Shown here piece by piece: positions 25,690 to 61,442 of a stretch of 64,000 nt of DNA. The stretch lies in the UHGV virus genome UHGV-1558314. One strand, 5' to 3'. A model generated the notes under the pieces. That model had not been told where the DNA came from, made no database searches, and was given only the letters and a program-made list of their open reading frames with translations. Made by a program: the position numbers and the translations under genes. The DNA is from a virus. Position 1 is the stretch's first letter. Each line of letters begins with the position of its first letter.

Positions 25690-25700
25690 ATTATTATCTT

Positions 25701-26111
25701 TTAGAATAGAGATATTGTACAACAATTTGATTCAGGTTGCCATTCTACAATATGCGCATCAAAGTGTTTGTTAAGCCAATGTGCAAGTATGTGTCTATGA
25801 CAAAATGCAGATGGTCTGCACCAACATAACAATACAATGTCTCGTTCGCCTGCAAAAATCTTTATGCGATGCAGCATCAAACTTATCTGTGACAATGCAG
25901 CGTCAAGTTTTGCTGCATATTGCTCTGCATATTGTGCATTGTCAAGCAAGCCTGCTTTATGCAAACGAACAAGTGACATGTAATCAGGCATGACGTCAGT
26001 CCATGTAAAATCTGCTATGAAGCCCTTAGGCTTTGTTGCAGACACTTGAACAAGAAATGCGTTATCAGGCAGATGCCTGCATGCATAATATGAAGTCAAG
26101 ATTCTTGTCAT
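25701..26111 (-). CDS. Small protein with C-x-x-x-x-C-H-R motif (DUF488-like?)
   Basis: LLCWCRPSAFCHRHILAHWL; family assignment from memory only. Confidence 0.3.
   Translation of the reverse strand: MTRILTSYYACRHLPDNAFLVQVSATKPKGFIADFTWTDVMPDYMSLVRLHKAGLLDNAQYAEQYAAKLDAALSQISLMLHRIKIFAGERDIVLLCWCRPSAFCHRHILAHWLNKHFDAHIVEWQPESNCCTISLF
25711..25726 (-). promoter_or_regulatory. Promoter box upstream of polymerase N-terminal gene
   Basis: attgtacaaca at 25714-25724, embedded in the 3' end of the upstream gene. Confidence 0.4.
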
Positions 26112-42763: not shown

Positions 42764-43822
42764 TTACTGCTTCAAGCCTGTGAACAGTTCATACTTGAAT
42801 GCAGGCCCTGCTGTGTAAGCCTCAAAGTAGAAGTCACCAATATTGATGCTTGCAATAGCGTCATCGACAGCTTTCTTGTAGCCTACACGTTCAATTGTCT
42901 GCTTATCGCATTTACGCCAATATGTGCTGTGCATCATAAGCGTGGGTGATGCAGCATAGTCTACTGCAAGCTGTTGTTTTGCAGTGTCAATGTGATGTTC
43001 ATAGATGTGCACATCATTGCCAGTCCAAATGAACTCTCTTGCCGCACAGTTAGTCAATGTTGCAACAATATGTGTAAGCAATGCATATGATGCGATATTG
43101 ATGGGCACACCAAGACACATGTCACAACTACGCTGAGTAAGCGCACAGTCAAGCCACATGCTTGGTACTTGAGCAGAATCAAGGCATTCTGCAGAACAAT
43201 CATGCACAAGCATGCTATCATTAGCAATCTGAATTCGTTCTTCAAGAGTCATTGGCTGACAATTGAACTGAAACAGCATATGACATGGCGGCAATGCCAT
43301 CTGAGACATTTGTGCAGGATTCCATGCAGACACGACTTTGTAGCGGCCAGTTGGATTGATGACAATGTCTTTAATGCAAGTTGCAAGTTGGTCATATCCA
43401 CTGTCATTGAAGTTGCGCCACTGATACCCATAGATAGGTCCGCAATCACCATACTCAGGCTTGCTGAATTTTGTGTTATGCAGTTCTGTGCACCAAGTTT
43501 CAAAGTCGACATCTTCACCTGGATGCAGTTTACGCCAATGACGATATGCATCCTGATGCCAGAACTTTGTAATACCAAGCGTGTCAAGCGTTTTTACATT
43601 TGTATCACCTGACATAAACCACAGAAGTTCTCCAATGACACCCTTGACAAACATTCTCTTGGATGTCAACAGTGGAAAGCCTTTACGCAAATCAAATCGC
43701 ATTGATTCTACAAACAATGACTTTGTGCGAGGCATGTTTTCACGAGCAGGCTCCTTAAATCTGCCATGTTCAATAACATTGTTAAGTACTCTCAAGTACT
43801 CAGTGTCGTGTTTGATATTCAT
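42764..43822 (-). CDS. thyA: Thymidylate synthase (ThyA family, canonical dUMP-type)
   Basis: ELLWFMSGDTN, LPPCHMLFQF (catalytic Cys), GVPINIASYALL with Asn at the base-specifying position. Confidence 0.75.
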   Translation of the reverse strand: MNIKHDTEYLRVLNNVIEHGRFKEPARENMPRTKSLFVESMRFDLRKGFPLLTSKRMFVKGVIGELLWFMSGDTNVKTLDTLGITKFWHQDAYRHWRKLHPGEDVDFETWCTELHNTKFSKPEYGDCGPIYGYQWRNFNDSGYDQLATCIKDIVINPTGRYKVVSAWNPAQMSQMALPPCHMLFQFNCQPMTLEERIQIANDSMLVHDCSAECLDSAQVPSMWLDCALTQRSCDMCLGVPINIASYALLTHIVATLTNCAAREFIWTGNDVHIYEHHIDTAKQQLAVDYAASPTLMMHSTYWRKCDKQTIERVGYKKAVDDAIASINIGDFYFEAYTAGPAFKYELFTGLKQ

Positions 43823-46687: not shown

Positions 46688-47044
46688 TTATTTGCACATA
46701 AACAATGCAGCAAACCAATTCACTGGCTTGTCAATAAGCTGCTTCCACATAGTCCAATTGTACATGCCATGTGCAAACATTGTAAGAGCAAACAGCAGCA
46801 TACACATTGATACAAGCCAATCAGCAAATGGCATATTGCCCCATCGAATGTACTCGAAAATGCCAACTTTAACAAGCTGAGCAAACAAAATGAGCATTAC
46901 AGCCATTGCAAGTCGCGTCCAGACTACATATTGCTGAGTCTTATCTACAAACTTTGCAATCAATGCTGGCACAAAGTACATAATGTATGCAAACAGCAGC
47001 AAGCAAAAGCCTGCATACAGCAGATTAGAAATAAAAGCTCCCAT
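46688..47044 (-). CDS. Multi-pass membrane protein (118 aa)
   Basis: Four hydrophobic segments. Confidence 0.4.
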   Translation of the reverse strand: MGAFISNLLYAGFCLLLFAYIMYFVPALIAKFVDKTQQYVVWTRLAMAVMLILFAQLVKVGIFEYIRWGNMPFADWLVSMCMLLFALTMFAHGMYNWTMWKQLIDKPVNWFAALFMCK

Positions 47045-47047
47045 ATT

Positions 47048-47929
47048 CTATCGTTTGAATTTGATGAAGTGTTCAGCATCGAGGCCCTCAAATACATACG
47101 GGTCAAGAGTTTCCCAGAAGTTTGAGTATGTCGTTGTCTTTGCAATGCTTGTTTGCTTTGACAAGTTCATATTTGGGTAGCCAAGCATTGCATAGTGTCG
47201 CTCATATATGTGCATTGACGTCGCATTATGCACATATGCGCCAAGCTTAAGACCAAGTTCATTTGCGACAAGTTCTTGCAACAAAGTGAATGCAAACTGG
47301 TCGTTGCAAAAGCCCCAAATGACATCATTGCTTCGCATGTATGTTGTCAAGTACAGCTTATCACCACGAACATTGAAAACAAGATTCAATGTGCATGGCA
47401 TGTCTTTGCCAGTGTAGTTTGCATATTGCGGCTCATAAATGCTAATAACTGCTCGTCTTGTGCATTCATGATTTCGCAAACGTTCAATGACATCTGCAAT
47501 CTGCTTGTGCCAAATTGCGCCATACTGTGAATTGACATTGACACCATCGTCGCTGAATTGCTTCCAACGAGGCAAATAACGTTCAATGCATTCAACTGCA
47601 GGATTGGCTGTCATGTACCACGCAAATTCTGCAGCAGCATTGAGCTTTTTCCATGGTCGTACGTCAATCTTGATTTGCCGCTGTGAAGGGTCCTGAATAA
47701 CTACAGACACATTCAGCAATTCTTTTGTTCGAGTCACTGTTTGTGCATTGTTGCCCTTTGATTCTACAAACTCACCTCTACAATGAAGTTCATACAAAAT
47801 TGAGCGAAATGCTTCTGTTGCAGTGTTTTCAATGATTGTCGTCTGTTGATAACATAAATTTGACGACAATGCTTCAGCATCATTGTACTTTATGCTGTCA
47901 TTGTCATAAGGTGAATTTTTTGTGTGCAT
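47048..47929 (-). CDS. Deoxycytidylate hydroxymethylase-like protein (ThyA-family paralog)
   Basis: RRAVISIY, PCTLNLVF (catalytic Cys), MRSNDVIWGFCNDQFAF with Asp at the base-specifying position, MHIYERH; closely resembles recalled T4 gp42 (MRSNDVVFGFRNDYAW, LHVYSRH). Confidence 0.55.
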   Translation of the reverse strand: MHTKNSPYDNDSIKYNDAEALSSNLCYQQTTIIENTATEAFRSILYELHCRGEFVESKGNNAQTVTRTKELLNVSVVIQDPSQRQIKIDVRPWKKLNAAAEFAWYMTANPAVECIERYLPRWKQFSDDGVNVNSQYGAIWHKQIADVIERLRNHECTRRAVISIYEPQYANYTGKDMPCTLNLVFNVRGDKLYLTTYMRSNDVIWGFCNDQFAFTLLQELVANELGLKLGAYVHNATSMHIYERHYAMLGYPNMNLSKQTSIAKTTTYSNFWETLDPYVFEGLDAEHFIKFKR

Positions 47930-47953
47930 ATTTTGGGATGTTTGTTTTTGTTA

Positions 47954-49048
47954 TCATACAACGACGGTATCTCGTTTGCAATCTGTTCTGTCGAATATCG
48001 AGCAACAATATGATGCAGATTGCTCTTTGATTGCAATAGCTTCGTCATTGTCAAGTGATGAAATACCATCTATGTATGCTTTTGTATTGCCAGCGATGTC
48101 ATCATTTGTTAGCAATGCTGCACGACGTTCAGTACCAAAGAAGCCAAAGCACAATTGACGCTGCAATGCTTCACGAGAAATCTTGTCATCAAACTCGGAT
48201 TTCATGTGTTGCATAAATTCGACAATATCATCAATGTCGCATTGAGTAAAGTCAATGTACAATTTATGCATGTACTTGAATCGTTTGTAGTCTGTTGCAA
48301 GAATTTCTGGGTGCACAATGAACAACGTCTTTTTGCTGTCTATTGGATTTGCAATGACTGACGCTTGAACATAATCAACAAGCACGCCAGATTCACGAAG
48401 TTGCTCAACTGTTTTGCCAAATATATGCCCAAACGTGTCATCAAACCACTTCAAGTATACTTCGTTGTCTTCATCTTTTGATGCGCCAACAATGTAAATC
48501 TCATTGACTCCAAGCGCTTTAAGACGAGTGTCAGATAGCATCGTGTTCAATTGATGCTGCACATACAGCATTGGGCTGCTATGCAAAACTGTTTTGACAA
48601 TCTCACAAGCAATGTCCATATATGCATAGTCAAGCTTTGCAGATTTTGACACATACACTGCACGTTGCTGCAATGGCTCAATTGCTGAGCATGTGGTCAC
48701 AAAGTTGCCAACACATTCTGCTACTGCAATGTCATGCAAGTCATCTGCAATGTACACAATACTTGACAAGTCATCAAATGTTTGAACAAGTTGCTGAAGC
48801 TTTGTTTTGTAATTGCAGAGCATCAATGACTTGATGTTGCAATTGCCAAGCATTGTCTTGATGAGTCGTTGACCTGCTTCAGTGCTGTCACCAGAAATGA
48901 CATGCACATCGCAGTCAAACCAGTTCAACATGTCGATTGCATGCCGAACGCCATATTGCATTTGTTTTGCGAACTTGCCAGATTCATTGAACAGCATTTC
49001 ACCTGACATAATGCCGTCAAAGTCACATACGATTTGAAGTCTGTCCAT
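47954..49048 (-). CDS. HAD-superfamily (KdsC-like) phosphatase domain protein with uncharacterised C-terminal half
   Basis: N-terminal VCDFDGIMSGE ... VHVISGDS ... IADDLHD. Confidence 0.4.
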   Translation of the reverse strand: MDRLQIVCDFDGIMSGEMLFNESGKFAKQMQYGVRHAIDMLNWFDCDVHVISGDSTEAGQRLIKTMLGNCNIKSLMLCNYKTKLQQLVQTFDDLSSIVYIADDLHDIAVAECVGNFVTTCSAIEPLQQRAVYVSKSAKLDYAYMDIACEIVKTVLHSSPMLYVQHQLNTMLSDTRLKALGVNEIYIVGASKDEDNEVYLKWFDDTFGHIFGKTVEQLRESGVLVDYVQASVIANPIDSKKTLFIVHPEILATDYKRFKYMHKLYIDFTQCDIDDIVEFMQHMKSEFDDKISREALQRQLCFGFFGTERRAALLTNDDIAGNTKAYIDGISSLDNDEAIAIKEQSASYCCSIFDRTDCKRDTVVV

Positions 49049-49052
49049 GTTG

Positions 49053-49385
49053 CTACAATTTTGAAGTTAAGTCAATTCGAATTTTGTCTGCGTTGCTTTG
49101 GTCAACAAATCTGTCATCAAAGAAACATTCAACTACGACAAGCTTCTTTGAATTCACAAATTCGATTAGCGATTTTTGCATTGCATCAAGTTGCTTCATG
49201 CATTTACAAAAGCTGCTGTATGACATGATTTGCTTTGGTAACATATCAAATGCGTCTGCAATTCGCTGATGAGCAATCTTTTTTGATGTTGCAATAATGA
49301 CATCTGCTTTGTTGTCATTTGCATGATTGCCAAATATCGCAATATGGTAAACTTTCATTGTATGAGTGATTTTGCTGTTATACAT
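49053..49385 (-). CDS. Hypothetical protein (110 aa)
   Basis: ATG start verified. Confidence 0.3.
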   Translation of the reverse strand: MYNSKITHTMKVYHIAIFGNHANDNKADVIIATSKKIAHQRIADAFDMLPKQIMSYSSFCKCMKQLDAMQKSLIEFVNSKKLVVVECFFDDRFVDQSNADKIRIDLTSKL

Positions 49386-49412: not shown

Positions 49413-52400
49413 TTAACAAATTGATGACGTGCCATCAGTATTTGCTACAACTGTCAATGCACTATCAAACTCATCTTGTTGCAATACATGGTCAACTATG
49501 AGTGTTTTGCGAATTGCAGAAAGCTTGGTAAGCAACTGCATCAACACTTGCTGATAATTGATATTGTTGACATCATGCTCAGCGCCAACAATCTGCCCAT
49601 TGCTAAGCTTGCCACTGATTTCGTCAATGAGCAAGATGTTGCCCACTTTGTTTAAGCGTTGAGTCAAAATGAGATGCACGATTGCAAGACCTGCGAAAGT
49701 TCCTTCCATGCCAGACATTTGACTTACACTTCGAATTGACTTCGAGCCCATCAAGTCAATCATCTTCAACACATTGTTGTCATTGATGTCAAAGAACACT
49801 CGGTAGTTCAATGAATCCAGCAAATCATTGAGCTGTGCATTCAGTGATGTTGCAATTGCTGCAAAGACATATGAAACTAAGCCTCGTTTGCTTGTGCACT
49901 GCTTATATGCATTGTACACCAAGTTTGCAATGTTCCACTTTTTCGAAGCTTGCAAATCTTTCTTGAGAGCTTCAATTCGCACATTGTTTGCTGATAAGTC
50001 TGCTTGCATTGTTGCAATTTCTGCATTGATGCTTAGCAGTTTTGAGTTCGCTTCAGTTTCATGCTGCTTAGCATCATCAATGTCGACTTGCAATGCAGCA
50101 TTTGTTGTAATATGCTGCTGAGTTTGCTGTGCATGTTCAAGTGCAAATGCTGCAGCAGTCTTATCAATCTCAAGTTGTTTAAGCGCAGACTCATATGTCG
50201 CTTTCTTATCATACTCTGCTTGAGCAATTTCAAGTTCAGCATTTATTGCAGCCAGTTCTGATTCTACTGTAGATTTTGATTGCAATACATCTTGCTTTGC
50301 TTGTTCAGCTTTACGTTTGATGTCTGCAAGTTGATTTGTGATATCTGCAATTTGCATTTTGACTGCTTCGACTTCAAGCAATGTTGCTGCAGTAGCCATT
50401 GGTTGTGCAATGAATGCATCTAAGTCTCTTTGCGCATTGACTACAGTTCTCTGCAAATCATTGAGCTTTTCTGCATGCATGTCATATGCTGCTTTGTGTG
50501 CTGGATTCAGTGCAGCAATTATTGCATTTGAATCTGTAACATCTATGATTGCTGCTTGCAGTTGCTCAATTTCATACTTCAAATTGCCAATTTTGACAAC
50601 ATTCTCATTGAATTGCTCTGTCTTTTGCGCACATTCTTGACGCAACTTAGCAAGCTCAGTTGACAACCACAGCTTGTATGCTTGTCCTGTGCCAGATGTC
50701 AAGTCATTTGTACATACAGGGCATTTGTCGTTTTCAAGTTGCTTTTGCTTGTCTATAACATTGTCGATGTTTGTTTTTGCAGCAGATATTTCTGTTCTAA
50801 GTGCATTTTGAACAGTGTTGATGTCTTCAATTTGCTTTTGCAAAGCATCTATTTTTGCCCGAGTGTTTGCATTGTACGACTTGCCAAGATTTATCAGCAC
50901 AGAATCAATGTGCTGCTTTGCTGCATCATATGCAAGCTTTGATTCATCAAGCTTTGTTCTGTACAATGACTCTGCATGCGCAACTTCTTTCTGCACTTTT
51001 GCAGATAGCTCATTCTGTTTTGTAAGCAGCTCAGCATATGTATTGTGCAGCTGTGAGCCAGATGCTATGACATTTGTGTATGCTGTATTAGCTTCATTGT
51101 CAATATTAGTGAGTTGCTGCTCAATCTGTGCTTTTGCTGTTTGCAACTTAGACATATCTTGCAATGCAAGTGCAGCAATGTCAAGCTCAACTTTGTGAAT
51201 CTTTGCAATGATGCCATCGATATTTGCTGTTGCATCTTCTATAGTTAAGATGTCTGCAGGAATTTGATGTAGTTTCTTTGAGAGCTCTTCTACTTTTGCA
51301 CGAGCTTTTGTAAGCTTCGCGGACCACTCTTTTTGATTATCTTGTCGTAACTGCAAAGAGTAATTGAGTTCATTGCAAGTTGTATTGAGAGACTCAAGTT
51401 CTGCTTTTATTGCAACATCAGTCAATGCGGGCTTACTAAGGCCATCAAACAATGCAGCCTTTGCAGCATCATTAGAATTGCCAAGCTGTACAAATGTATT
51501 GATGCCAAGAGTATCAAGTAGCCAGTCATTCAATGAATTTGAGTCCATTGCAATGATTTGGTCAAGTAGTGTCTGATTGATACAAACATATCGCGACAAT
51601 TCCCAGATAGAGCCAAAGATTGCATATAGCGTGTCTTTGATTTCATGCTGCGGCACTACGTAGTCATCTGACAATCTTACAAGCTGAACAGTCTCATTGA
51701 CTGCTGACACGTTATCTCGCCATGAGCCATCTGCATTTATTCGAGAACCTCGTTTGAATTTGCGTTCAAGTGTTCGAATCAATTTGTAGTGAACATTTTG
51801 ACCTGCTACTACATGCACAAAGACACAAGAAGCTTCAAGCTTATCATATGACTCATTGTCAATCAATTTGTCATTGAAGTATGTCAAAGCGTTCTGCTTT
51901 GTTGCTGCAGAAGACTGTTCAGCGTCAATAAAGCCAGTCAGCAGCCATTTGATAAGTCTGAAGATTGTAGTCTTGCCATTGCCATTGTTGCCTCTAACTT
52001 GTGTAAGCTGTGCAAGATTGTCAAAGCTGACATCAACATCTTTCAATGCCATGAACTGATTTGCTTTAACATTTTGAATGACATATTTTGCAACTTCAGT
52101 GTCAAAAGACAATTTATCAATTTGTTCATCAATCAATGACTTGAACATGTCAACAAACTGCTGAGCATCTTCAGTAGCAACTATGGCATTGCGTTCAATG
52201 TATGCATTGACCCAGTCAAGTGCAGCGTCTTTAAGCCATTCAGCAGTTTGAACCTTTTGCAGCAAATTGTCGCCATTTGCGTCTACAGCATTGATTGAAT
52301 CAATGACAGCAGAATCATACAGAATGTCAATTGCAGCAACAACATATGAACTTACAAGATTCTGTGCAATGCGCTCAACAATACCAGACAGTTCGGGCTT

Positions 52401-53339
52401 TGTGACCTTTGACTTGATTTTGATTTTATTGATGCGGCCAGGGTTGATGAGTGCAATCTTGTCTGTTTTGACATCATTATCAATTGTGATTGTATGATAA
52501 TGCACAAGCTGCTCAAGTGGATGCCACTCTACCACAATTCGCTTGTTGTCAATATCGATGTCAAGCAAGTTGTAGCCATGTTCTGCAGTACCATGCTGTA
52601 TTGCAGTGTCATTCAACAAATAGTCGCCTTCACCAAAATCTCTGACAATTGGCGAGCCGCAATATGTTAATGTCTTATCACCAGCAACCCATATTGCATG
52701 CTTATGAATGTCACCCATTGCAACAAAGTTGCTATTAAATTGCATTGCATCTATACGACTGTCATTGTCACCACGAACAATACAATCATCAAAGTTGACA
52801 CAATTCTTTACAGGGTCATGGAACAGCTCAATGACACACATTGATGACAATGCTGCAATCTGCGATTCATCAAGTGATGCCCAAGGCGAATATGTGCCAC
52901 CAGACCACTTCTCATTTTGAGCCCATACTGCAGCAGCAAAACCAGGTGCAAGCAGTTCAACTCTTGAACTGTTGATATACTTGATTCGCTTGTCATCAAT
53001 TGCAGTTACAAGCTTGTCAATGCTATCTGTCCACTGCATTTGTGAACCATCACCAGCATCAAATGTGTTATCACGTTGCTTCAAATCATGATTGCCAGCA
53101 GTAATGACAATTTGAAGCTTGTCATTGACTTCAAGCATGCCTTTGAGCAGCTTAACAAACAGCGACTCTTCAAGTGAATTGCTATTCCAATGCTCAAACA
53201 CGTCGCCGACAATGAATACAAACTCAACTGACTTTGCTTTGTCAATTAGTTGTTTGTTGATGTGCTCATATTCTACGAAACGTCGTAAATGACCTTGTCG
53301 AACATTATATTGAATGTCTGCTATGTGAAGTGCTTTCAT
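49413..53339 (-). CDS. Fused Mre11/SbcD-like nuclease and Rad50/SbcC-like ATPase (1308 aa)
   Basis: N-terminal phosphoesterase motifs (LHIADIQ, IVGDVFEH, TAGNHD) resemble recalled T4 gp47; then Walker A GNNGNGKTT, long coiled coil, zinc hook CPVCTNDL, C-terminal LLIDEISGKL. Confidence 0.65.
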   Translation of the reverse strand: MKALHIADIQYNVRQGHLRRFVEYEHINKQLIDKAKSVEFVFIVGDVFEHWNSNSLEESLFVKLLKGMLEVNDKLQIVITAGNHDLKQRDNTFDAGDGSQMQWTDSIDKLVTAIDDKRIKYINSSRVELLAPGFAAAVWAQNEKWSGGTYSPWASLDESQIAALSSMCVIELFHDPVKNCVNFDDCIVRGDNDSRIDAMQFNSNFVAMGDIHKHAIWVAGDKTLTYCGSPIVRDFGEGDYLLNDTAIQHGTAEHGYNLLDIDIDNKRIVVEWHPLEQLVHYHTITIDNDVKTDKIALINPGRINKIKIKSKVTKPELSGIVERIAQNLVSSYVVAAIDILYDSAVIDSINAVDANGDNLLQKVQTAEWLKDAALDWVNAYIERNAIVATEDAQQFVDMFKSLIDEQIDKLSFDTEVAKYVIQNVKANQFMALKDVDVSFDNLAQLTQVRGNNGNGKTTIFRLIKWLLTGFIDAEQSSAATKQNALTYFNDKLIDNESYDKLEASCVFVHVVAGQNVHYKLIRTLERKFKRGSRINADGSWRDNVSAVNETVQLVRLSDDYVVPQHEIKDTLYAIFGSIWELSRYVCINQTLLDQIIAMDSNSLNDWLLDTLGINTFVQLGNSNDAAKAALFDGLSKPALTDVAIKAELESLNTTCNELNYSLQLRQDNQKEWSAKLTKARAKVEELSKKLHQIPADILTIEDATANIDGIIAKIHKVELDIAALALQDMSKLQTAKAQIEQQLTNIDNEANTAYTNVIASGSQLHNTYAELLTKQNELSAKVQKEVAHAESLYRTKLDESKLAYDAAKQHIDSVLINLGKSYNANTRAKIDALQKQIEDINTVQNALRTEISAAKTNIDNVIDKQKQLENDKCPVCTNDLTSGTGQAYKLWLSTELAKLRQECAQKTEQFNENVVKIGNLKYEIEQLQAAIIDVTDSNAIIAALNPAHKAAYDMHAEKLNDLQRTVVNAQRDLDAFIAQPMATAATLLEVEAVKMQIADITNQLADIKRKAEQAKQDVLQSKSTVESELAAINAELEIAQAEYDKKATYESALKQLEIDKTAAAFALEHAQQTQQHITTNAALQVDIDDAKQHETEANSKLLSINAEIATMQADLSANNVRIEALKKDLQASKKWNIANLVYNAYKQCTSKRGLVSYVFAAIATSLNAQLNDLLDSLNYRVFFDINDNNVLKMIDLMGSKSIRSVSQMSGMEGTFAGLAIVHLILTQRLNKVGNILLIDEISGKLSNGQIVGAEHDVNNINYQQVLMQLLTKLSAIRKTLIVDHVLQQDEFDSALTVVANTDGTSSIC

Positions 53340-53418: not shown

Positions 53419-53766
53419 TTATTTTGCAAGCATTTTGCTGATTGCATCTATCACAGTTTCACTGAGCAAGTAGTAGACAACGCTTATCAGCAATGATATC
53501 AGTACTGCAGCTGTGATAAATTGCAACGCATTCACAATTGCACGCACAAATGTTATCTGTGTGTTGTATGCAAGCACTATGCAGCATAGCACAATAATGA
53601 CACACCAGACTACAATTGCATATGCAGGCATCAATGAATTTGTCCATATGCAGTACAATACAGTAGTTAGCATCAAAAATGCTATTGCTCTGATGACTGA
53701 CACAATGATGTCTATGTAGAGCTTCATTACACGTAAATGAACTCTTGGCTTATGCGGTTTCATCAT
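53419..53766 (-). CDS. Small multi-pass membrane protein
   Basis: Start at ATG 53764-53766 overlapping upstream stop (ATGA); three hydrophobic helices. Confidence 0.35.
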   Translation of the reverse strand: MMKPHKPRVHLRVMKLYIDIIVSVIRAIAFLMLTTVLYCIWTNSLMPAYAIVVWCVIIVLCCIVLAYNTQITFVRAIVNALQFITAAVLISLLISVVYYLLSETVIDAISKMLAK

Positions 53767-54995
53767 GACTTTATGTACAATTCTGCAAGTTGTCTGGTGT
53801 ACAATCGTGGATTGTGATATGCTTTCCAATATGCAGTAGACTTTATTGCAGCAAGAATCTCATCATAATGTTTGACTGCTTTTGCTACAACTTCATCAAG
53901 TACATGCAAATCTTCTACACTAACAAGCAGCCATTTTTCTACAATGTCAATGAATTCTTGATTGCAATTAAAGCCATATTTGTAGTTGCAAGTGTCAAGT
54001 ACAAGTGGGATGCAGTCATTTGTCAGTGCTTCAAAAAATCTACGAAGACTGAAACAATTCTCATCATATGATGGAATGCTTAATGTAAACTTGGCAGTCT
54101 TGATGAGTTGCAAATACTCTTCGTATGGAATCAGAGGACCATTGTGCTTCCACTGATTGTTATGTCGTCTTGTTGTGTACTTGAACAAAAACTTTGAACT
54201 GTCAAGCTCACAAAGATGGTCCATGCGTAAAATGTAGTTATAGCGGTCTCTTCTATCAGGCCAACTGTCAGTCATTGCAAACACAAAGTCTCTTTGCTTG
54301 TCACATTTTGCTGACATACCTCTATGCTGACACATGCAGTACCAATATTGCTGCGATGGACTGAACTCGAACTTTGAGTGATGCTCACTGCCATCTTTGC
54401 ATTGTTGAACGTAAATATTGTCAGGCACAAAGTGAAAGTAGAAATGTCGAATTTGCAAGCCGTCAATGTAGTCAAGCTTATGCTGCAATGGGTCCTCACA
54501 GAAATTGTAACACTGAATGCGTTTTGCTGCAGCATACTCAGCAACTATGAATGTGCACACCCATTGCAATGCGATGTCTTCACTCTTCAAAAAGTCAACA
54601 AGTGGCTCATTTGGATGCGCTTTGCATTCATTGAACATTTTGTACCACTTGCATTGCTCCATGTCATACTTGGAGACTGTATTGCCATTAAAAAATGACA
54701 CAGTATCAATTTTGAATGCCTCAAGTTGTTTATGCACAATGTCGATTGCTTGTGCATATGTGACAGTCTCATCAGACATTATTTGTGCAAACTTGATTGG
54801 ATGCGCATGCAAATTTGCAATTGTGTCTGCTGACATTTTGCGCTGTGTATGATAATCGACATACAAAAACTGACACTTGTCTGTAAGCAATTCAAGCATT
54901 GCTACAGATTTCCATCGAATTGCTTGAAAGAAATTGAAGTGCGCAGTTTGAAAAATGAGATGCGTAGGCTTGTCAGAATGAGTCAAAGTTTGCAT
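53763..54995 (-). CDS. Glycosyltransferase-like protein (GT-B-type C-terminal motif), paralog B'
   Basis: IPSYDENCFSLRRFFEALTNDCIPLV resembles GT-B donor-binding motif; paralogous to 58026..59582 (shared EDPLQHKL, PSQQYWY). Track start is TTG; ATG at 54993-54995 used. Confidence 0.45.
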   Translation of the reverse strand: MQTLTHSDKPTHLIFQTAHFNFFQAIRWKSVAMLELLTDKCQFLYVDYHTQRKMSADTIANLHAHPIKFAQIMSDETVTYAQAIDIVHKQLEAFKIDTVSFFNGNTVSKYDMEQCKWYKMFNECKAHPNEPLVDFLKSEDIALQWVCTFIVAEYAAAKRIQCYNFCEDPLQHKLDYIDGLQIRHFYFHFVPDNIYVQQCKDGSEHHSKFEFSPSQQYWYCMCQHRGMSAKCDKQRDFVFAMTDSWPDRRDRYNYILRMDHLCELDSSKFLFKYTTRRHNNQWKHNGPLIPYEEYLQLIKTAKFTLSIPSYDENCFSLRRFFEALTNDCIPLVLDTCNYKYGFNCNQEFIDIVEKWLLVSVEDLHVLDEVVAKAVKHYDEILAAIKSTAYWKAYHNPRLYTRQLAELYIKS

Positions 54996-56158
54996 GGACA
55001 AATGTCGCAGTTATGTTGATGTTTGTGTTTATTTATGAAGTCATATGTCACTGCAAAAAAGTGCTTTGCAATGTCATATCGAGTTTTCAAATATGCTGCT
55101 TGTCGTTCACAAAATGCTGCATAAATATCTGGGTGTTGTTTGAATGCTGCAATGCGTTGCTGTACTTGTTCTGCAGAATGCACATATGACACTTTGCTCA
55201 AATATACATCATCTGCAAATAATCGTTTGTCTTTGTCAACTGCGCAATCAACAAAAGTTGCAATTCGTGCAACAATTGCTTCACCGACACGATTTGGTAT
55301 TAGCCCATATTGCTCATATTGCTGTTCGCCGATAGCAATGTGTGCTGCTGCATATGACATTGCATATGGCACACTATAAAATGGCACACTAAAATCAAAT
55401 GAACAATTTGACTGCAGCAATTGTGTTTGTGCATCAGACAATCTACTTGTCAAGTTGCCTGTATATTTGTGCTCACCAAGAAAACTTGAGCGACAGCCTG
55501 AATCTACATAGTATCGAATGACTTTGTTTATGCGACTGTCAGATAGCATATGCCAATCTCTTGTAGCATATATCAAGTCTACTGTTTTTGCGCCAATATG
55601 ACGAGGCTCTATCGCAACATTGCTGTATGTTGGCAGCATAAACAATGGCAGCCATTTGACATTGTTGAACACTGAATGCTCATTTGACAAATTCATGCAC
55701 TGGCTAAGTTCAAGTACTGGCTCATCATACACGCCATGTAGCTCAACTCTGCCTGCATGCACAAAGTTGACACGCTTAAATGGAAATCGCATATCAGTGC
55801 AAACTGTCATTCTTGCTGCAATAGACATTCGCCACATAGCATGCAGCTTAACAACTGCTTCTGCTTGAGGTCGAGGCAACATATTTAGCAAATCAATCCA
55901 GCCGCCCCACAAAATCCAAACATCATTTGAACAGATGTTGAATTGCAAACTCAATATGTCTTCTACTGTTGTAGCAATAATGTCATGCCCATTGATGCTT
56001 GCAAGGTGTTTTCGTTGATTTGCAATAATAATGACTTGACTGAATGGAGACTCTGGAAATGACACAAGCGCTTTTGCAAACAACACGGGTTCTTGCGACA
56101 CCAAGTTGTTTGAGTATGGGTCGATTATGCAATCAAGCTTGTGTATGAAGAGTCTCAT
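54983..56158 (-). CDS. Hypothetical protein (391 aa), paralog A' of 59579..60745
   Basis: Shared N-terminus MRLFIHKLD vs MSKLFILKFD and TDMRFPF vs TDLRFDF; sits immediately upstream of a GT-like gene. Confidence 0.4.
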   Translation of the reverse strand: MRLFIHKLDCIIDPYSNNLVSQEPVLFAKALVSFPESPFSQVIIIANQRKHLASINGHDIIATTVEDILSLQFNICSNDVWILWGGWIDLLNMLPRPQAEAVVKLHAMWRMSIAARMTVCTDMRFPFKRVNFVHAGRVELHGVYDEPVLELSQCMNLSNEHSVFNNVKWLPLFMLPTYSNVAIEPRHIGAKTVDLIYATRDWHMLSDSRINKVIRYYVDSGCRSSFLGEHKYTGNLTSRLSDAQTQLLQSNCSFDFSVPFYSVPYAMSYAAAHIAIGEQQYEQYGLIPNRVGEAIVARIATFVDCAVDKDKRLFADDVYLSKVSYVHSAEQVQQRIAAFKQHPDIYAAFCERQAAYLKTRYDIAKHFFAVTYDFINKHKHQHNCDICPCKL

Positions 56159-56889
56159 TTTGCAGATGATTCAAAAAATTTGTAGACATCGCAGTTAGCA
56201 ATGTGGTCATTCCAAGCATCTTCAGAGTCTGCAACAAAGCCACAATGACAGCGTTTTGGCTGCCAAACTGGTTCAACTACTGCAGGCATTGCTTCTTCAA
56301 TAGTGTTTGCAGGTTCATTATCTGCTGGCAATACTTCAACGTCTTCAACTTGTGCTGCATCTTGTTGTGCACGCTGCTCAATGACATTGCCCTCAAAGTC
56401 AAACTGAATGCCAGCTTGTTCTGCTTTTGTACGATTATTACGAGCTACGAACAAATACGCAAAGATGAATTCGACAAGCGCTATGGCAAGTGACTTCAGT
56501 GCATTGACAAGAAGCATGATGCCTGTTGATAAATGGCCGTCAAAGCTCAAAAACACGAACACACATGTAAAGCATGACATAAACACTGCAATCAGTGGAA
56601 TGTTCTTGTATTTTGGCAACAAATCAGAGTTGACTGATGTAAGCAACACAACGAATTGATAACCTATTGCAAGCCAATAGTCGCCAAACACTGCATAGAT
56701 ATGCGTAGTGATGCCAATAAGAAATGTGATAGTCACAATCATAATGAGCAACACACTTGTCAGAAAGTCTGCAATAGAATTGCTGAGCTTGTCATACCAG
56801 TGTTTGTTGACAATTGACGTGTTGGCTACGCGCACTTTACTAAGTGCATCTATGCCGCTTTTGATATTTGATTGTGCTTTCATACACAT
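56155..56889 (-). CDS. Multi-pass membrane protein with C-terminal Cys/His-rich soluble domain (244 aa)
   Basis: Several hydrophobic helices; C-terminal CHCGF...HIANCD; ATGA overlap with next gene. Confidence 0.4.
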   Translation of the reverse strand: MCMKAQSNIKSGIDALSKVRVANTSIVNKHWYDKLSNSIADFLTSVLLIMIVTITFLIGITTHIYAVFGDYWLAIGYQFVVLLTSVNSDLLPKYKNIPLIAVFMSCFTCVFVFLSFDGHLSTGIMLLVNALKSLAIALVEFIFAYLFVARNNRTKAEQAGIQFDFEGNVIEQRAQQDAAQVEDVEVLPADNEPANTIEEAMPAVVEPVWQPKRCHCGFVADSEDAWNDHIANCDVYKFFESSAK

Positions 56890-57136
56890 ATAACGTTATA
56901 TCATATCTACACACAAAGCAAATGCTACTGCAAGTGCAGCCATAATTGCATATACGACTATCGATGCAGTATAATCTGATTCAGGATTCCACTTATCAGG
57001 TGTGTTAAGCTTGTGATACTTGTCTCGTCTCATCTTGAGTCAAAAAATGATGGCTGCTGCTACATTTTGTGAAATCATGTGCAGCAGCCATCTGGCAGGT
57101 TTCTTGCTTTGTAAAGCTTGGATAGAGGATGGATTT

Positions 57137-57195
57137 TATATGTTGATATTGTACAACATGCAAAATGTATTTGCATTTTGATACAACATATATTG
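57137..57195 (-). promoter_or_regulatory. Promoter box with adjacent palindrome
   Basis: tatatgttgatattgtacaacatgcaaaatgtatttgcattttgatacaac, near-identical to 53360-53410. Confidence 0.45.
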
Positions 57196-57411
57196 TCATT
57201 TTGCACAGTCTGATGCAATTAAATCTTTGTCAAAGCATTCATCTATAATGTCTTCAATAAGATACGCTTCGACATTGTTAAGCTTCAAGATATCTACGAG
57301 TTTTGCTTTGATATCGCAAGCTAATGCAGATTCGACTGTATGCAATATGACTGATGATACGACATGCTTGTCTGTCATCATTTGTAATTGCTGTGGTGTT
57401 ACTCTACTCAT
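57196..57411 (-). CDS. Small acidic hypothetical protein (71 aa)
   Basis: ATG start overlaps Tmk-like stop (ATGA). Confidence 0.3.
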   Translation of the reverse strand: MSRVTPQQLQMMTDKHVVSSVILHTVESALACDIKAKLVDILKLNNVEAYLIEDIIDECFDKDLIASDCAK

Positions 57412-57980
57412 GCGCCAAGTTCAGCTAAGCATTTCAACACATTGTCTTGCAGACTTGCATTGTTGTCAATTTCGACAATATGCAATGGTGAGTTCTTTCG
57501 CCACTCATCATATGCAGCAATCATTTCATTGCGTTTGCTGACATCAATGTTGACATCACCGCAAAAATTATCGACAAAATCTGGCACAACATCACGCTTG
57601 CATAAGAACACTACGTGCGGCAATGTTGCAAGCTTCTTTTCATATGCTTCAAAGAATGCTTGATGCTTATCAGTGTGCAGCTCTTTGTAAAGCGTTGTGT
57701 TGAAGATTTGATGCGTGATGAATGAACGGTCACACAAAAACGTTGCTTTGCCAAAGCCTTGAGAGTCATTTCCAATGAACTCTAAGAAGAAGCGCCAATC
57801 ATAAAAGAACGCTTCATTGAGGTCCCAAGGTTCGGGCATTGGGTCATCACCTGACTCATGCTGCTGCCACCAAGAACGAGATGTTCGTTTGCAATTGATA
57901 AACCATGGGCGCCACTTCATCAATTCATTGATGAGTGTTGTTTTGCCTGAAGCTTCTACACCTTCAAATATCGCTATCAT
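57408..57980 (-). CDS. Thymidylate-kinase-like P-loop nucleoside monophosphate kinase
   Basis: P-loop FEGVEASGKTT and CDRSFITHQ (DR-Y/H-like). Confidence 0.55.
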   Translation of the reverse strand: MIAIFEGVEASGKTTLINELMKWRPWFINCKRTSRSWWQQHESGDDPMPEPWDLNEAFFYDWRFFLEFIGNDSQGFGKATFLCDRSFITHQIFNTTLYKELHTDKHQAFFEAYEKKLATLPHVVFLCKRDVVPDFVDNFCGDVNIDVSKRNEMIAAYDEWRKNSPLHIVEIDNNASLQDNVLKCLAELGA

Positions 57981-58025
57981 TGTGTATTATGTTTGATTTT
58001 TGATTACAGTACAACGTAGTTATGC

Positions 58026-59582
58026 TCATTGCACTTCTACGAATGGCTCTTTCAACACAAAGCTGTCACCATTGCAACATGCGGCTGAGCCATCGTCTGC
58101 ATCAAGTGCGCATGACATATCAGACTTGCAGAACTTGCAATATGAACATGACCATGCATGACTCATAAAGTTGTTTGCTTCACAAATTACACAGCGCTCA
58201 TGTGAAAGTGTATTGTCGCAATTGTCACAAGACTTCTTGATTGGCACATCTTTATTGATATATGCAAGATGCAATGCAATATCATACACAAAGTCACCCG
58301 TATATTGCTGAATGAAATCAGTGTGCCACAACTCTTTTAACAATTGTGTATGTCTATATGGCTGAACAATGTCTTCAAGATGCTGCAAGTCATCATCGCT
58401 AACCATGAGCTTCTTAATGACAAACTGTTTGAACTGCGGCCATCTGTCAAACATATAGAGTTTGCATGAGTTGTGCACAAGTGGAACACAGCCAAGCACA
58501 ATGCTTTCACAGAATCTACGCAAACTAAAACAGTTTGCATCATATGACGGCACAATCAATGTGAATCTGCTATGCTTGATGAGTTCAAGGTATGTGTCAT
58601 ATGGCAGTAGCTTGTCTGACAATGGCTGCTGTTGCTTGTCCCTGCTGAAAAATCTGAACACAATGCCTTTATCAATTGCATCTTGATTGTGCAGATGCAT
58701 GAGTTTGTTGATGAGTTCTGTGCGTTCAGTTTTGTCTCGCCAAGTATTCGTCAATGCAAATGCAAAATTCAGTCGCTTGTCATCAAACGTCGCTTCAATG
58801 TCATCCCAAGTTTTGTCATGCAAATACCAGTATTGCTGTGATGGGCACCATCCATAATATGCAATAGCGTCTTGTTCTGCTGTAACGTCATACACATATG
58901 CAGAATTGTATTCAAGGCCAAGCCCTTTGACATTGTTGCAGTCATGAAAGTACCAATGCTGCACTTTGAATATCTTTGATGCACTGAATGCGCTTTCATA
59001 TGGCCCTGAATAGCGATAGTCAATGTAATTGAGCTTGTGCTGCAATGGGTCTTCGACAAAGTTGTTTATGACTGTGCCTTGTTGTTTGCCATTAGTCTTG
59101 CGAGCATTCAATGCAATATTGTACTGCATAATGACTGACAGCATCTCATACACTACATACATGAGTGCTTTGTAGACTGAGCCTGCTGCGTCAATTAGCG
59201 GCAAATCACGTTTGACTGATGCAGTACCAAATGTCTTGCAATATGCAGAAAATGTATCAAGTTCTGCCTGTTGAAATGAATTGCATGCGCCATTGAATAT
59301 GTTGAATGTTGCAATGTAGCTCATATTACAAGATGTCATTGACATATCAAGACGCTTCATAATGTCAGCAATGCGACATTGAGCAAAATCTGACACATCA
59401 ACATATTTGACATGATGACCTGATGCAGTCAAGCCAACTGCGACTTCTTTCATTTGTGGCACAAAGCCTACTACAATGAACAAGTCATCTTTGTTTGCTC
59501 GTTCAAACATTGCTGCACTTTTCCAAGTCAATGAATTGAAAAAGTCTATGTAGCCAGTCTGTGTGATGATATGTGTTCTCAT
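58026..59582 (-). CDS. Glycosyltransferase-like protein (GT-B-type C-terminal motif), paralog B
   Basis: VPSYDANCFSLRRFCESIVLGCVPLV; C-terminal Cys-rich extension (CDNCDN...CVICE...CSYCKFC). Confidence 0.45.
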   Translation of the reverse strand: MRTHIITQTGYIDFFNSLTWKSAAMFERANKDDLFIVVGFVPQMKEVAVGLTASGHHVKYVDVSDFAQCRIADIMKRLDMSMTSCNMSYIATFNIFNGACNSFQQAELDTFSAYCKTFGTASVKRDLPLIDAAGSVYKALMYVVYEMLSVIMQYNIALNARKTNGKQQGTVINNFVEDPLQHKLNYIDYRYSGPYESAFSASKIFKVQHWYFHDCNNVKGLGLEYNSAYVYDVTAEQDAIAYYGWCPSQQYWYLHDKTWDDIEATFDDKRLNFAFALTNTWRDKTERTELINKLMHLHNQDAIDKGIVFRFFSRDKQQQPLSDKLLPYDTYLELIKHSRFTLIVPSYDANCFSLRRFCESIVLGCVPLVHNSCKLYMFDRWPQFKQFVIKKLMVSDDDLQHLEDIVQPYRHTQLLKELWHTDFIQQYTGDFVYDIALHLAYINKDVPIKKSCDNCDNTLSHERCVICEANNFMSHAWSCSYCKFCKSDMSCALDADDGSAACCNGDSFVLKEPFVEVQ

Positions 59583-60745
59583 GATTTGAATGTTTGTTCA
59601 AGAATTGTGTAACACTGCACAATCATTACTGCAAGAGCTTTTTGCTGTGCTTGTTTGCAATCATCAAAATTTGTGGGCGCAGTGCGTACGCGTGTTTTGC
59701 TATTAAGTGTCGCAAATGTCGCGTAGTCATCGAAGCCTATAATGTCAGCAAATAGGGCAATTGGCTTATAATCTACAAGTATGTTGCAGCAATTTGCAAG
59801 TACGCCTTCAACCCATCGATTTGGCAGCAAGTCTGCTTGCACATACAATGAATCACCAACTACAAGATTGTATGCCGACTGTGACATTACACGCGGCATT
59901 GCATCGTATGTGACTTTGTATTTAAGTGTAAAGTTTGGTGCTGCTGATTTAATCGCAGACAAAATTGTGTCATCAAGATATGATGTTATGAGACACGTGT
60001 CGCACATATGTATGACAAATTGTTCAATCACACTTCTACGATACTCGTCAAGATATGTGAAACCTGCACAACTTGCACAGCATGCATATTGCTGCTTTAT
60101 GTCAGCAAAGCTACGCACATGAGCTTCAATTGCATTTTGCATCGTTACTTGTAGTTTAAGCAATCTTGGCTCTTTAATGTATTGAAGCTTCAATGCATTG
60201 ACTGCTGCAATGATTTGCAATGGGGCAAACACACATTGAGACTCATCAAGCCAAGCGTATTTGAGATTTTTGTGCTGGCATAGATGCGTAATGTTGTCTT
60301 TTTGTGATTCTAAGTACTCTTTGTAATTGTGCAATCGCTTTGTCAATGTGCATTCTTTATCAAAGTCGAATCGCAAATCAGTTGTTAGTGTAAATTTGCG
60401 AGCGTTTGACAAACACCATGTTTTGAATGCATTCCACAGAACATCTTGCTGAAATTCTGAGCAATGTTCAAGAGCAGCCTTTGAACCTTGCCAGAATATT
60501 GCGCAATCATCTGATTTTGCGCACTTCAGCATATCTTGCCATGCATGTATGTTATTGATAATATGCACATTATCATACACAAGCTCATCAAGTATTGCAT
60601 GCTTGTTCTCAGGGTCGCCAAACACATATACAGCATCAAACATTGTCTGCACAAAACCTGCAAATGCAATAGGTTCTGTATGCTTAAGATGCTGTACGTC
60701 TGAACGCACGCATGTGTCAAATTTCAAAATGAATAGTTTGCTCAT
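59579..60745 (-). CDS. Hypothetical protein (388 aa), paralog A
   Basis: ATGA overlap with downstream GT-like gene; paralogous to 54983..56158. Confidence 0.4.
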   Translation of the reverse strand: MSKLFILKFDTCVRSDVQHLKHTEPIAFAGFVQTMFDAVYVFGDPENKHAILDELVYDNVHIINNIHAWQDMLKCAKSDDCAIFWQGSKAALEHCSEFQQDVLWNAFKTWCLSNARKFTLTTDLRFDFDKECTLTKRLHNYKEYLESQKDNITHLCQHKNLKYAWLDESQCVFAPLQIIAAVNALKLQYIKEPRLLKLQVTMQNAIEAHVRSFADIKQQYACCASCAGFTYLDEYRRSVIEQFVIHMCDTCLITSYLDDTILSAIKSAAPNFTLKYKVTYDAMPRVMSQSAYNLVVGDSLYVQADLLPNRWVEGVLANCCNILVDYKPIALFADIIGFDDYATFATLNSKTRVRTAPTNFDDCKQAQQKALAVMIVQCYTILEQTFKS

Positions 60746-61442
60746 ATACTTTGCAATTATCTATTACATGTTGATATTGTACTTCATCTATGATGTGATT
60801 TGCAATGACACCATATGAGGCGTCATACATTGGCATCTTCTCATATGACAATGCTGCGTCAAGATTGCATATCACATAATTGCAATGCACAATGTCATCT
60901 ACATTGTCACTAACTGCTACGATATTGACACACTTTGCAAGAAATGCATCATCAAAGTCTACTTGATTGCATGCAACCTCATAATCTGCTGCGCTTCTTG
61001 GGTACCAATATAACTCAATGCCAGCACTACTAAGTAGTCGCAAGCCATCTATGTGATGATACAAGTCAACAAAATGCACTTGCTTAACGCCTGCTTGCAA
61101 AATAAGCTTTGCGCAATCAATGCATGGACTGTATGTTACATACAGCACTGCGTCATTTGCGGTCGCATTGCCATATTTGCACAGCTTCATCAATGCGTTT
61201 GATTCTGCATGCAAAACTTCTTTGTTGGTTTTGATACCTGCCGATGTTGCATGCTCACAACAATTTGACATGCCAGTTGGCATGCCATTGTAGCCATCTG
61301 AAATTATGCAACCATTTTTTACAAGCAATGCGCCAACTTTTGCTCGCTGAGCATATGAATTTAATGACCAAAGCTCAGCCATTTTAAGATATATGAGATT
61401 TCGTTGAAACTGCTTTGTTTCAGACCAAGTTAGCCATTTCAT
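60717..61442 (-). CDS. dCMP deaminase (zinc-dependent cytidine/deoxycytidylate deaminase family)
   Basis: HAESNAL ... SPCIDCAKLI zinc-binding motifs. Confidence 0.7.
   Translation of the reverse strand: MKWLTWSETKQFQRNLIYLKMAELWSLNSYAQRAKVGALLVKNGCIISDGYNGMPTGMSNCCEHATSAGIKTNKEVLHAESNALMKLCKYGNATANDAVLYVTYSPCIDCAKLILQAGVKQVHFVDLYHHIDGLRLLSSAGIELYWYPRSAADYEVACNQVDFDDAFLAKCVNIVAVSDNVDDIVHCNYVICNLDAALSYEKMPMYDASYGVIANHIIDEVQYQHVIDNCKVYEQTIHFEI
60766..60785 (-). promoter_or_regulatory. Promoter box embedded in 3' end of dCMP deaminase gene
   Basis: acatgttgatattgtacttc about 25 nt upstream of ATG 60745. Confidence 0.35.

Follow-up and report, generated by a model that had tools for sequence, protein, structure and literature searches.

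What does a phage do with a phosphatase resembling KdsC, an enzyme of bacterial Kdo synthesis, when the gene for it lies next to one that is expected to make a modified cytosine? The question is posed by a gene at positions 47954–49048, on the minus strand, of a 64,000-nucleotide stretch of the virus genome UHGV-1558314 (the whole of which is called the window here). It codes for a 364-aa protein joining a HAD superfamily phosphatase domain to an orphan C-terminal domain, and is followed by the gene for a thymidylate synthase (TS) homologue. HAD phosphatases are already known from phage pathways for the glycosylation of cytosine. In the work on phage HY126 (cited in PMC13326640, section 27), the enzyme AfhE converts arabinofuranose-5-phosphate to the 1,5-bisphosphate, AfhF takes off the 5-phosphate, and AfhE then produces UDP-arabinofuranose. 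Based on sequence and gene context, we tentatively propose, with somewhat less than even confidence, that the KdsC-like clade typified by the window protein replaces AfhF non-orthologously: its role would be to remove phosphate from an arabinofuranose phosphate in the synthesis of UDP-arabinose, the donor for glycosylation of 5-hydroxymethylcytosine (5-hmC).

The window is 100% identical to the ENA contig ERZ27260853 k119_42272 (175,395 bp) and derives from a T4-like phage of human-gut metagenomes, with a gp20-type portal, a gp21-type prohead protease, homologues of gp23 and gp2, and a split family-B polymerase; a collinear sister genome (IMGVR_UViG_3300045988_152288) is 95.4% identical. The phosphatase gene runs from an ATG, backed by three homologues with the same beginning, to a stop codon at 47954–47956. 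Full-length homologues occur only in its own lineage (P0001, P0002 and P0003, with 98%, 59% and 38% identity), and all three of their loci share the gene order SbcCD fusion, small open reading frame (ORF), phosphatase, TS homologue and helicase. Against a 95%-identical IMG/VR ortholog, the ratio of nonsynonymous to synonymous substitution rates is 0.085 overall, 0.02 in the N-terminal domain and 0.11 in the C-terminal domain. Given this low ratio and the syntenic homologues at 59% and 38% identity, it is a real, constrained gene under purifying selection and not a chance ORF. Its ATG lies just 4 nt past the stop of a 110-aa ORF (49053–49385, minus strand), with which it is hence probably co-transcribed; a small ORF occupies the same place upstream of the homologue in loci L001 and L002. 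The phosphatase stop lies 25 nt ahead of the next gene. A Shine-Dalgarno sequence is absent on the minus strand upstream of both the phosphatase (49049–49060) and its downstream neighbor (47930–47953), the leaders being A-rich. These leaders fit a Bacteroidota-type host, as do the Chryseobacterium phage MA9V, the nearest cultured relative, and the Bacteroides-phage matches to the TS homologue.

The N-terminal domain (residues 1 to ~154; 48587–49048) is of the KdsC/YrbI-like, cap-less (C0) HAD phosphatase type. The earlier note on this DNA had read HAD motifs in a KdsC-like arrangement in this half of the protein, and both profile and fold searches recover KdsC-family phosphatases. Positions 4–140 of the 154 in the NCBIfam profile TIGR01670 (KdsC/YrbI) match residues 6–142 with E=1.9e-9, albeit at 37.7 bits against a curated cut-off of 106.95 bits; NF007019 (KdsC) is matched at 30.2 against a cut-off of 208, and NF058599 (KDN-9-P phosphatase) with E=1.2e-5, at 25.6 against an equivalog cut-off of 180 bits. 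A profile of four family sequences matches eight solved KdsC-family structures, including 3ij5 (E=7e-7), 2p9j and 2r8e. The AlphaFold2 model of the domain is poor (predicted local distance difference test, pLDDT, ~50), and its top PDB matches by Foldseek are KDN-9-P phosphatase and YrbI (probability 1.00, TM-score ~0.5). Searches of Pfam and PHROGs with the protein gave no significant match, so that the kinship with KdsC was apparent only from the NCBIfam and PDB profiles; without any Pfam match, the protein likewise does not fall in PF25109 (HAD_PNKP).

The alignment to KdsC is collinear over ~150 aa, with indels of only four residues and no cap insert between the motifs, and it places all the catalytic elements. 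Motif I, D9-F-D11-G12 (49013–49024), with Asp9 as the predicted nucleophile and Asp11 as the acid/base, aligns to D32-V-D34-G of E. coli KdsC, and its DxD is invariant in all seven clade members. Ser52 of motif II aligns to T76 of E. coli KdsC, is a Thr in the homologues, and opens the clade-specific loop S-G-D54-S-T-E-A-G-Q (48869–48895). Lys83 of motif III (48800–48802) aligns to K102 and is invariant. Motif IV, D102-D103-L-H-D106 (48731–48745), supplies the predicted Mg2+ ligands and aligns to D125-D126-L-I-D129, D103 and D106 being invariant across the clade. The departures from KdsC lie in what surrounds these residues. In place of Arg78 of the KdsC TGR motif, all seven clade members have an invariant Asp54, after which four residues are inserted, and the hidden Markov model alignments to solved KdsC proteins place "tGr" opposite "tGd" in all four cases. 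Where KdsC has TGR, the clade displays the signature [ST][GA]D[SQ][TS]xxG, in the form GDSTxxGQ in the window protein, PAU gp216 and the L100 protein; the NVRDG segment of KdsC is deleted in 7/7 members. Thus, with its catalytic motifs intact, the domain should be a catalytically competent KdsC-like phosphatase, yet, with Arg78 and NVRDG missing, not a Kdo-8-P phosphatase. It shares subfamily, catalytic residues and cap-less architecture with KdsC/YrbI (TIGR01670; PDB 2r8e, 1k1e, 3ij5), but is phage-encoded, fused to an extra domain, altered in the above loop, below the family cut-off in score, and outside the lipopolysaccharide kdsA/kdsB context.

This HAD clade is rare and phage-only. We found it in five lineages: the present gut phage, two IMG/VR contigs, Sphingomonas phage PAU and Chryseobacterium phage MA9V. 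Among cultured phages, tblastn recovers the domain only from PAU (gp216) and MA9V-1/2; a pattern scan of 2.9 million IMG/VR contigs recovers the clade from four—the sister genome, PAU, L100/L165 and L129/L164—and a few metagenome fragments also carry it. All inspected complete or near-complete genomes and long contigs with the clade also have genes for both an arabinose-5-phosphate isomerase (API) and a sugar kinase/nucleotidyltransferase resembling AfhE. On three contigs (PAU, L100 and L129), the HAD gene sits inside the API–AfhE cluster, in the slot held by AfhF in T4-like phages. In PAU, gp216 is directly downstream of gp215, a fusion of NTP_transferase and APH-kinase domains and a full-length homologue (E ~1e-30) of the RB69 ORF052c/AfhE family, which is present in 372 phage records; gp212 is a SIS-domain isomerase. 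L100/L165 shows the order glycosyltransferase (GT) of the GT1 type, 261-aa ORF, D169N TS homologue, thymidylate kinase (Tmk)-like kinase, KdsC-like HAD fusion, API, AfhE and dCMP deaminase, and L129/L164 the order TS homologue, HAD, API and AfhE. In MA9V-2, the API (MA9V2_233) and the AfhE-like protein (MA9V2_235, "GlmU") are encoded elsewhere in the genome than the HAD, and inspection of 98% of that genome turned up no AfhF-type HAD.

The distribution of the KdsC-like HADs complements that of AfhF. An AfhF-type HAD is directly downstream of AfhE, and a KdsC-like HAD absent, at 26 of the 28 AfhE loci from IMG/VR; the two loci without AfhF carry a KdsC-like HAD instead, the two types being mutually exclusive (the scan that yielded these loci missed the sister contig, the kinase motifs of which differ from the search patterns). 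The jumbo gut-phage contigs L153–L158 and L160 (IMG/VR 3300045988, 167–294 kb) carry an API and a shorter AfhE-like gene, with neither an AfhF-type nor a KdsC-like HAD within 5 kb; here a gene elsewhere, or yet another enzyme, presumably provides the phosphatase step.

The phosphatases AfhF of HY126, gp51 of RB69 and gp81 of DLP3 belong to the arabinosyl-5-hydroxycytosine pathway, and the window's block of GTs, Tmk-like kinase, TS homologue and HAD parallels the clusters gp76–81 of DLP3 and gp45–51 of RB69 (PMC13326640, Table 1). Like AfhF, the window enzyme is a predicted small Mg2+-dependent HAD in a cytosine-hypermodification block with a TS homologue, GT-B enzymes, a Tmk-like kinase, API and AfhE. 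Unlike it, the window enzyme is KdsC/YrbI-like with a 210-aa orphan domain, the AfhF type being a ~120-aa single-domain protein described as 1xpj/GmhB-like; when the clade profile and the phiR1-RT ORF051c homologue are compared by hhalign, the probability is 0.3%, and tblastn gives no match.

Whether the window phage itself has the sugar-activating pathway was at first doubtful: neither API nor AfhE was found in the window or in the 10 kb past its high end, and NTP-transferase motif, APH kinase and SIS domain were looked for inside the window in vain. The suggestion that the pathway is absent was overturned when a scan with an API alignment matched the sister contig at 80,097–90,714 (L131), ~7–17 kb before window base 1, in a stretch that overlaps the window's own contig at 95% identity. 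It encodes, at L131 4304–10259, a gp1-like dNMP kinase, an API (SIS; L131 5004–5720; 39% identical to MA9V2_233), a PNKP-type HAD, and an AfhE-like nucleotidyltransferase/kinase (L131 8604–10259; 31% identical to MA9V2_235, E=3e-56). The API and AfhE genes lie ~12–17 kb before window base 1. As judged from this relative, the window phage has a predicted pentose-activation pathway, with two candidate phosphatases for it.

The modified base can be predicted from the gene downstream of the phosphatase. The earlier note had spoken of an adjacent hydroxymethylase gene, and indeed the 293-aa TS homologue at 47048–47929 (minus strand; PF00303, E=4e-24) has hydroxymethylase-type residues: relative to E. 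coli ThyA it displays L143D and N177D and retains D169, and its best PDB match is the CMP hydroxymethylase MilA. The residues that separate dCMP hydroxymethylases from 5-hydroxy-dCMP synthases, the latter with D169N, were defined in PMC13326640. With D169 retained, the neighbor is by this signature a dCMP hydroxymethylase, and we reject a reading as 5-hydroxy-dCMP synthase; the AfhF systems feature the 5-hydroxylase type (D169N). The TS homologues of L001, L002, MA9V-2 and L009 share the hydroxymethylase-type signature. The one in PAU, gp182 (L092 35221–35928), has L143E, D169N and N177D, the signature of 5-hydroxy-dCMP synthases, and is flanked by the GT-like gp179–181/183 and by RmlB/RmlC/RmlA-like genes (gp185–187, L092 37823–40302). 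PAU DNA may accordingly contain arabinosylated, possibly rhamnosylated, 5-hydroxycytosine. The virion DNA of PAU has been reported to be extensively modified (PMC7824862).

The pathway that we envisage would make the window enzyme a Mg2+-dependent phosphomonoesterase of the cap-less KdsC-like type, acting in the supply of a pentose donor. The phage API would turn ribulose-5-phosphate into arabinose-5-phosphate, which the kinase activity of the bifunctional AfhE-like enzyme would phosphorylate at C1 to give arabinofuranose-1,5-bisphosphate. The HAD enzyme would then remove the C5 phosphate, by attack of Asp9, formation of an aspartyl-phosphate intermediate, and acid/base catalysis by Asp11. The nucleotidyltransferase half of AfhE would convert the resulting arabinofuranose-1-phosphate to UDP-arabinofuranose, with which the four GT-B-like transferases encoded at 53.7–60.7 kb would glycosylate 5-hmC, a base that the neighboring dCMP hydroxymethylase, a kinase and the polymerase would have brought into the DNA. 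The chemistry has a natural precedent: Kdo-8-P, the substrate of KdsC, is made from arabinose-5-phosphate, so that the scissile phosphate is on the same terminal D-arabino CH2-O-P group, a rationale that might by analogy extend to the phage enzyme. A hydroxymethylase-type synthase together with API and AfhE therefore predicts arabinosylated (pentosylated) 5-hmC DNA. The logic is shared with the glucosyl-hmC system of T4, which likewise has a hydroxymethylase, dCMP deaminase, ThyA, dUTPase-like enzyme, kinases and DNA glycosyltransferases; however, T4 takes UDP-glucose from its host and needs no phosphatase, whereas this phage encodes its own API and AfhE and unrelated GT families. Which substrate is used, that the phosphate is taken from C5, and which sugar is involved are our inferences, as is any role of the C-terminal domain.

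Several observations weigh against this proposal. In this phage, unlike AfhF, the phosphatase adjoins the hydroxymethylase rather than AfhE, lying ~60 kb from API and AfhE, which were seen on the 95%-identical relative and not on the window's own contig. Even the adjacency to the hydroxymethylase suggests inherited synteny, because MA9V has the same order (SbcCD ... HAD ... TS ... helicase). A stand-alone 151-aa PNKP-type HAD (PF25109, E=2e-30) between API and AfhE could do the AfhF step, and API+AfhE loci exist with neither HAD type nearby, so the phosphatase step is not always clustered. An Asp54 in place of the cationic Arg is not an evident fit for a doubly anionic bisphosphate; sequence similarity between the clade and AfhF is undetectable, and the AfhF-like activity of its members is putative. 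Finally, the C-terminal domain is under purifying selection, yet an AfhF-analogous role does not explain its function.

Some of these facts could be accommodated by a phosphatase of the nucleotide pool, which would dephosphorylate dCMP, dUMP, dTMP or 5-hydroxymethyl-dCMP (hmdCMP) and in this way bias the pools in company with the hydroxymethylase, the dCMP deaminase, ThyA and the dUTPase-like enzyme. The phosphatase step of the sugar pathway would then fall to the 151-aa PNKP-type HAD or to an enzyme of the host. Precedents are the dTMPase and dNMPase activities of hydroxymethyluracil, uracil or T5 phages. The gene adjoins, and is probably co-transcribed with, the hydroxymethylase gene in the three lineages of the window group, and in MA9V and L009 it is near a TS homologue and a Tmk-like kinase; a second HAD is indeed available between API and AfhE, and the carboxylate-binding Arg of KdsC is lost. 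Nevertheless, we consider this unlikely: to our knowledge no dNMP nucleotidase belongs to the KdsC/YrbI subfamily, removal of phosphate from dCMP or hmdCMP would work against the adjacent enzyme, and neither the embedding of the clade in the API–AfhE cluster of L100, L129 and PAU nor its distribution complementary to AfhF is explained. The earlier note had suggested a role in making or trimming a modified nucleotide or a sugar-phosphate donor; the co-occurrence with API and AfhE, and the clustering in three contigs, speak for the second half of that suggestion and leave the first where it was.

A different phosphosugar could also be the substrate, either as a second or alternative sugar for the GTs or in boosting a host pathway: a Kdo/KDN-like ulosonate phosphate, a heptose or hexose bisphosphate, or arabinose-5-phosphate converted to free arabinose. 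The best profile and fold matches are after all Kdo-8-P and KDN-9-P phosphatases, the top Foldseek match being the KDN-9-phosphate phosphatase BT1713 of Bacteroides thetaiotaomicron (PDB 3e81, 4hgo; NF058599). It presumably shares with the window protein an acidic side chain at the position, after motif II, that sets specificity, and residue 54 recalls what we take to be the specificity residue Glu56 of KDN-9-P phosphatase (the title of PDB 4hgr names E56/K67). The phage moreover carries four GT-like genes of at least two types, and PAU has RmlABC-like genes too. However, BT1713 is without a C-terminal fusion, the scores are far under the KdsC and KDN-9-P phosphatase equivalog cut-offs, NVRDG is deleted and Arg78 replaced, and in the ~95 kb of the phage inspected we found no KdsA, KdsB, ulosonate (KDN/sialic-acid) synthase or CMP-sugar synthetase, but only the KdsD-like API. 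Among sugar-activation genes, moreover, API and AfhE alone accompany the clade consistently, and such substrates seem to us slightly less probable still than a nucleotide. We regard as highly improbable an action on macromolecules—a phosphorylated end of DNA or RNA, or a base intermediate that bears a phosphate, bound with the help of the C-terminal domain as a nucleic-acid- or partner-binding module—or a non-catalytic, structural part in a replication and dNTP-synthesis complex. Cap-less HADs often take large substrates, the neighbors include the SbcCD fusion and an XPD/DinG-like helicase, and the C-terminal extensions are variable and lineage-specific; but a dedicated 3'-phosphatase of the PNKP type is already present in the genome, sequence and fold searches with the C-terminal domain revealed neither a motif nor a fold for nucleic-acid binding, and the API–AfhE clustering in other phages would go unexplained. 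A pure scaffold is further disfavored by the very strong constraint on the catalytic motifs.

The C-terminal domain (residues 155–364; 47957–48586) was said in the earlier note to be unassigned and of ~190 aa; unassigned it stays, though its length comes to ~210 aa. An exhaustive phmmer search of 1.84 billion representatives returned only its own cluster and one protein at E=1e-3, and a profile search of 5.8 billion sequences only three clusters; a PDB profile search gave no significant match, nor did a Foldseek search of BFVD with the model of the domain give any at E<=1e-3. AlphaFold2 models it on its own (mean pLDDT 62, 70–89 in the core) as a beta-alpha-beta sandwich of 5–6 strands, with the core at ~183–330 and a disordered, Cys-containing tail at 331–364. 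Extensions are also seen elsewhere in the clade: ~165 aa in PAU gp216, ~180 aa in MA9V2_142 (which also has a 130-aa Cys/His-rich N-terminus), ~380 aa in the L100 protein and ~100 aa in P0005. By hhalign, the domain shows no detectable kinship to those of PAU gp216, MA9V2_142 and the L100 protein. The idea that it is a SIS domain did not hold up: the hints are faint and non-significant, hhalign against PAU gp212 aligns only 11 residues (the first strand and loop of SIS) with a probability of 0.3%, and a VHPE-like string in the domain is not conserved in the homologues. We read the extensions of the clade as lineage-specific accessory modules rather than a second conserved enzyme, which might serve in oligomerization, as a cap, or in docking of partners. 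It is conceivable, though we think it quite unlikely, that the orphan domain is a new functional module and that the pathway at the same time feeds arabinosylated 5-hmC; such a module could be a sugar-phosphate-handling domain, or a docking domain that channels arabinose-1-phosphate to AfhE or the GTs.

Arabinosylated 5-hmC was once proposed for RB69, the base of which has since been reassigned to 5-hydroxycytosine (PMC6024577, PMC13326640); the 5-hydroxycytosine version is now established for RB69 and DLP3. If our proposal is true, a widespread lineage of T4-like phages of the human gut, and MA9V as well, would contain arabinosylated 5-hmC, a base so far demonstrated in no virus. The arabinosyl-cytosine pathway was solved recently and only for phages of Proteobacteria that hydroxylate C5. 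The present analysis suggests that a second, unrelated HAD subfamily was recruited for the phosphatase step of donor synthesis in PAU-like, MA9V-like and human-gut T4-like phages, that two of these lineages couple the pathway to a synthase of the hydroxymethylase and not the hydroxylase type, predicting pentosylated 5-hmC, and that the phosphatases of the clade carry fast-evolving orphan C-terminal domains. In our literature search, no paper connected KdsC-like proteins with DNA modification in phages. The recruitment of a KdsC-like subfamily with an altered GDSTxxGQ loop to DNA glycosylation, its fusion to orphan C-terminal domains, and its pairing, in gut and Chryseobacterium phages, with a synthase of the hydroxymethylase type all appear undescribed. 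Hypermodification of phage DNA decides whether it is cut by restriction enzymes, CRISPR nucleases and type IV systems, and has consequences for sequencing and for engineering therapeutic phages. What results is a small set of genes with which a reconstitution of the donor pathway could be tested, and GDSTxxGQ as a marker motif for such phages in metagenomes. MA9V-2 encodes (L099 13718–16693, L004 8611–14138) a hydroxymethylase-type TS homologue of 447 aa with a C-terminal extension, a Tmk-like kinase and the KdsC-like HAD, along with its API and AfhE-like protein; being in culture, it would allow a test for the predicted arabinosyl-hmC.

The remaining genes of the modification block are all on the minus strand. 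Four GT-like genes span 53763–60745, two of them GT47/GT1-like and two homologues of PAU gp179/gp180. The first pair (53763–56158) consists of a GT47/GT1-like ORF of 412 aa (53763–55001) and a 391-aa ORF homologous to PAU gp180 (54983–56158; tblastn E=9e-11), and gives weak Pfam matches to Exostosin_GT47/Glyco_trans_1_2 and a match to the PHROG for beta-glucosyltransferase (E=1e-7). The others are a GT47-like ORF of 518 aa (58026–59582) and a 388-aa ORF with weak similarity to PAU gp179/gp180 (59579–60745). Between the pairs, and so within the GT block, an arrangement also seen in the DLP3/RB69 and L100 clusters, lies the 190-aa thymidylate-kinase-like P-loop kinase (57408–57980; AAA_28, PHROG thymidylate kinase, P-loop motif). 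The dCMP deaminase is at 60717–61442 (PF00383, E=5.5e-21), and a dUTPase/DCD-like (dCTP-deaminase-like) protein at 22074–22565. A canonical ThyA (42764–43822; PF00303, E=4e-76) retains L143 and N177; it has a ~30-residue insertion past the strand of the catalytic Cys relative to E. coli ThyA.

Some further features of this phage deserve mention. Directly downstream of the hydroxymethylase gene, a 118-aa hydrophobic, membrane-like protein, conserved in L001, is encoded at 46688–47044 (minus strand), a position that we take to correspond to that of imm next to gene 42 in T4. SbcD (Metallophos) and SbcC/Rad50 (AAA_23, with a long coiled coil) are fused in one 1308-aa protein (49413–53339, minus strand), a fusion also seen in L001, L002 and MA9V2_127. 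At the end of the sister contig, a 1.3-kb segment with a 333-aa ORF (L012 1–1340) recurs with 85–99% identity in ~80 human-gut metagenome contigs (79 loci in a metagenome scan); these are gut bacterial contigs that have nothing else in common with the phage. The segment looks like a mobile element of the insertion-sequence kind, or else like a chimera that arose in assembly of the contig end. Two ORFs make up the split family-B DNA polymerase, one for an exonuclease plus N-terminal part (24184–25725) and one for a polymerase part (19370–20662), both on the minus strand, with ~3.5 kb between them holding a DUF7487 protein (22976–24175) and the above dUTPase/dCTP-deaminase-like gene; MA9V-2 has the same split polymerase. 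Lastly, a 1316-aa ORF (1612–5562, minus strand) weakly matches the T4 prohead core protease (Peptidase_S77) near its N-terminus and would be an unusually large protease fusion; MA9V-2 annotates a comparable "prohead core protein serine protease" of 1207 aa.

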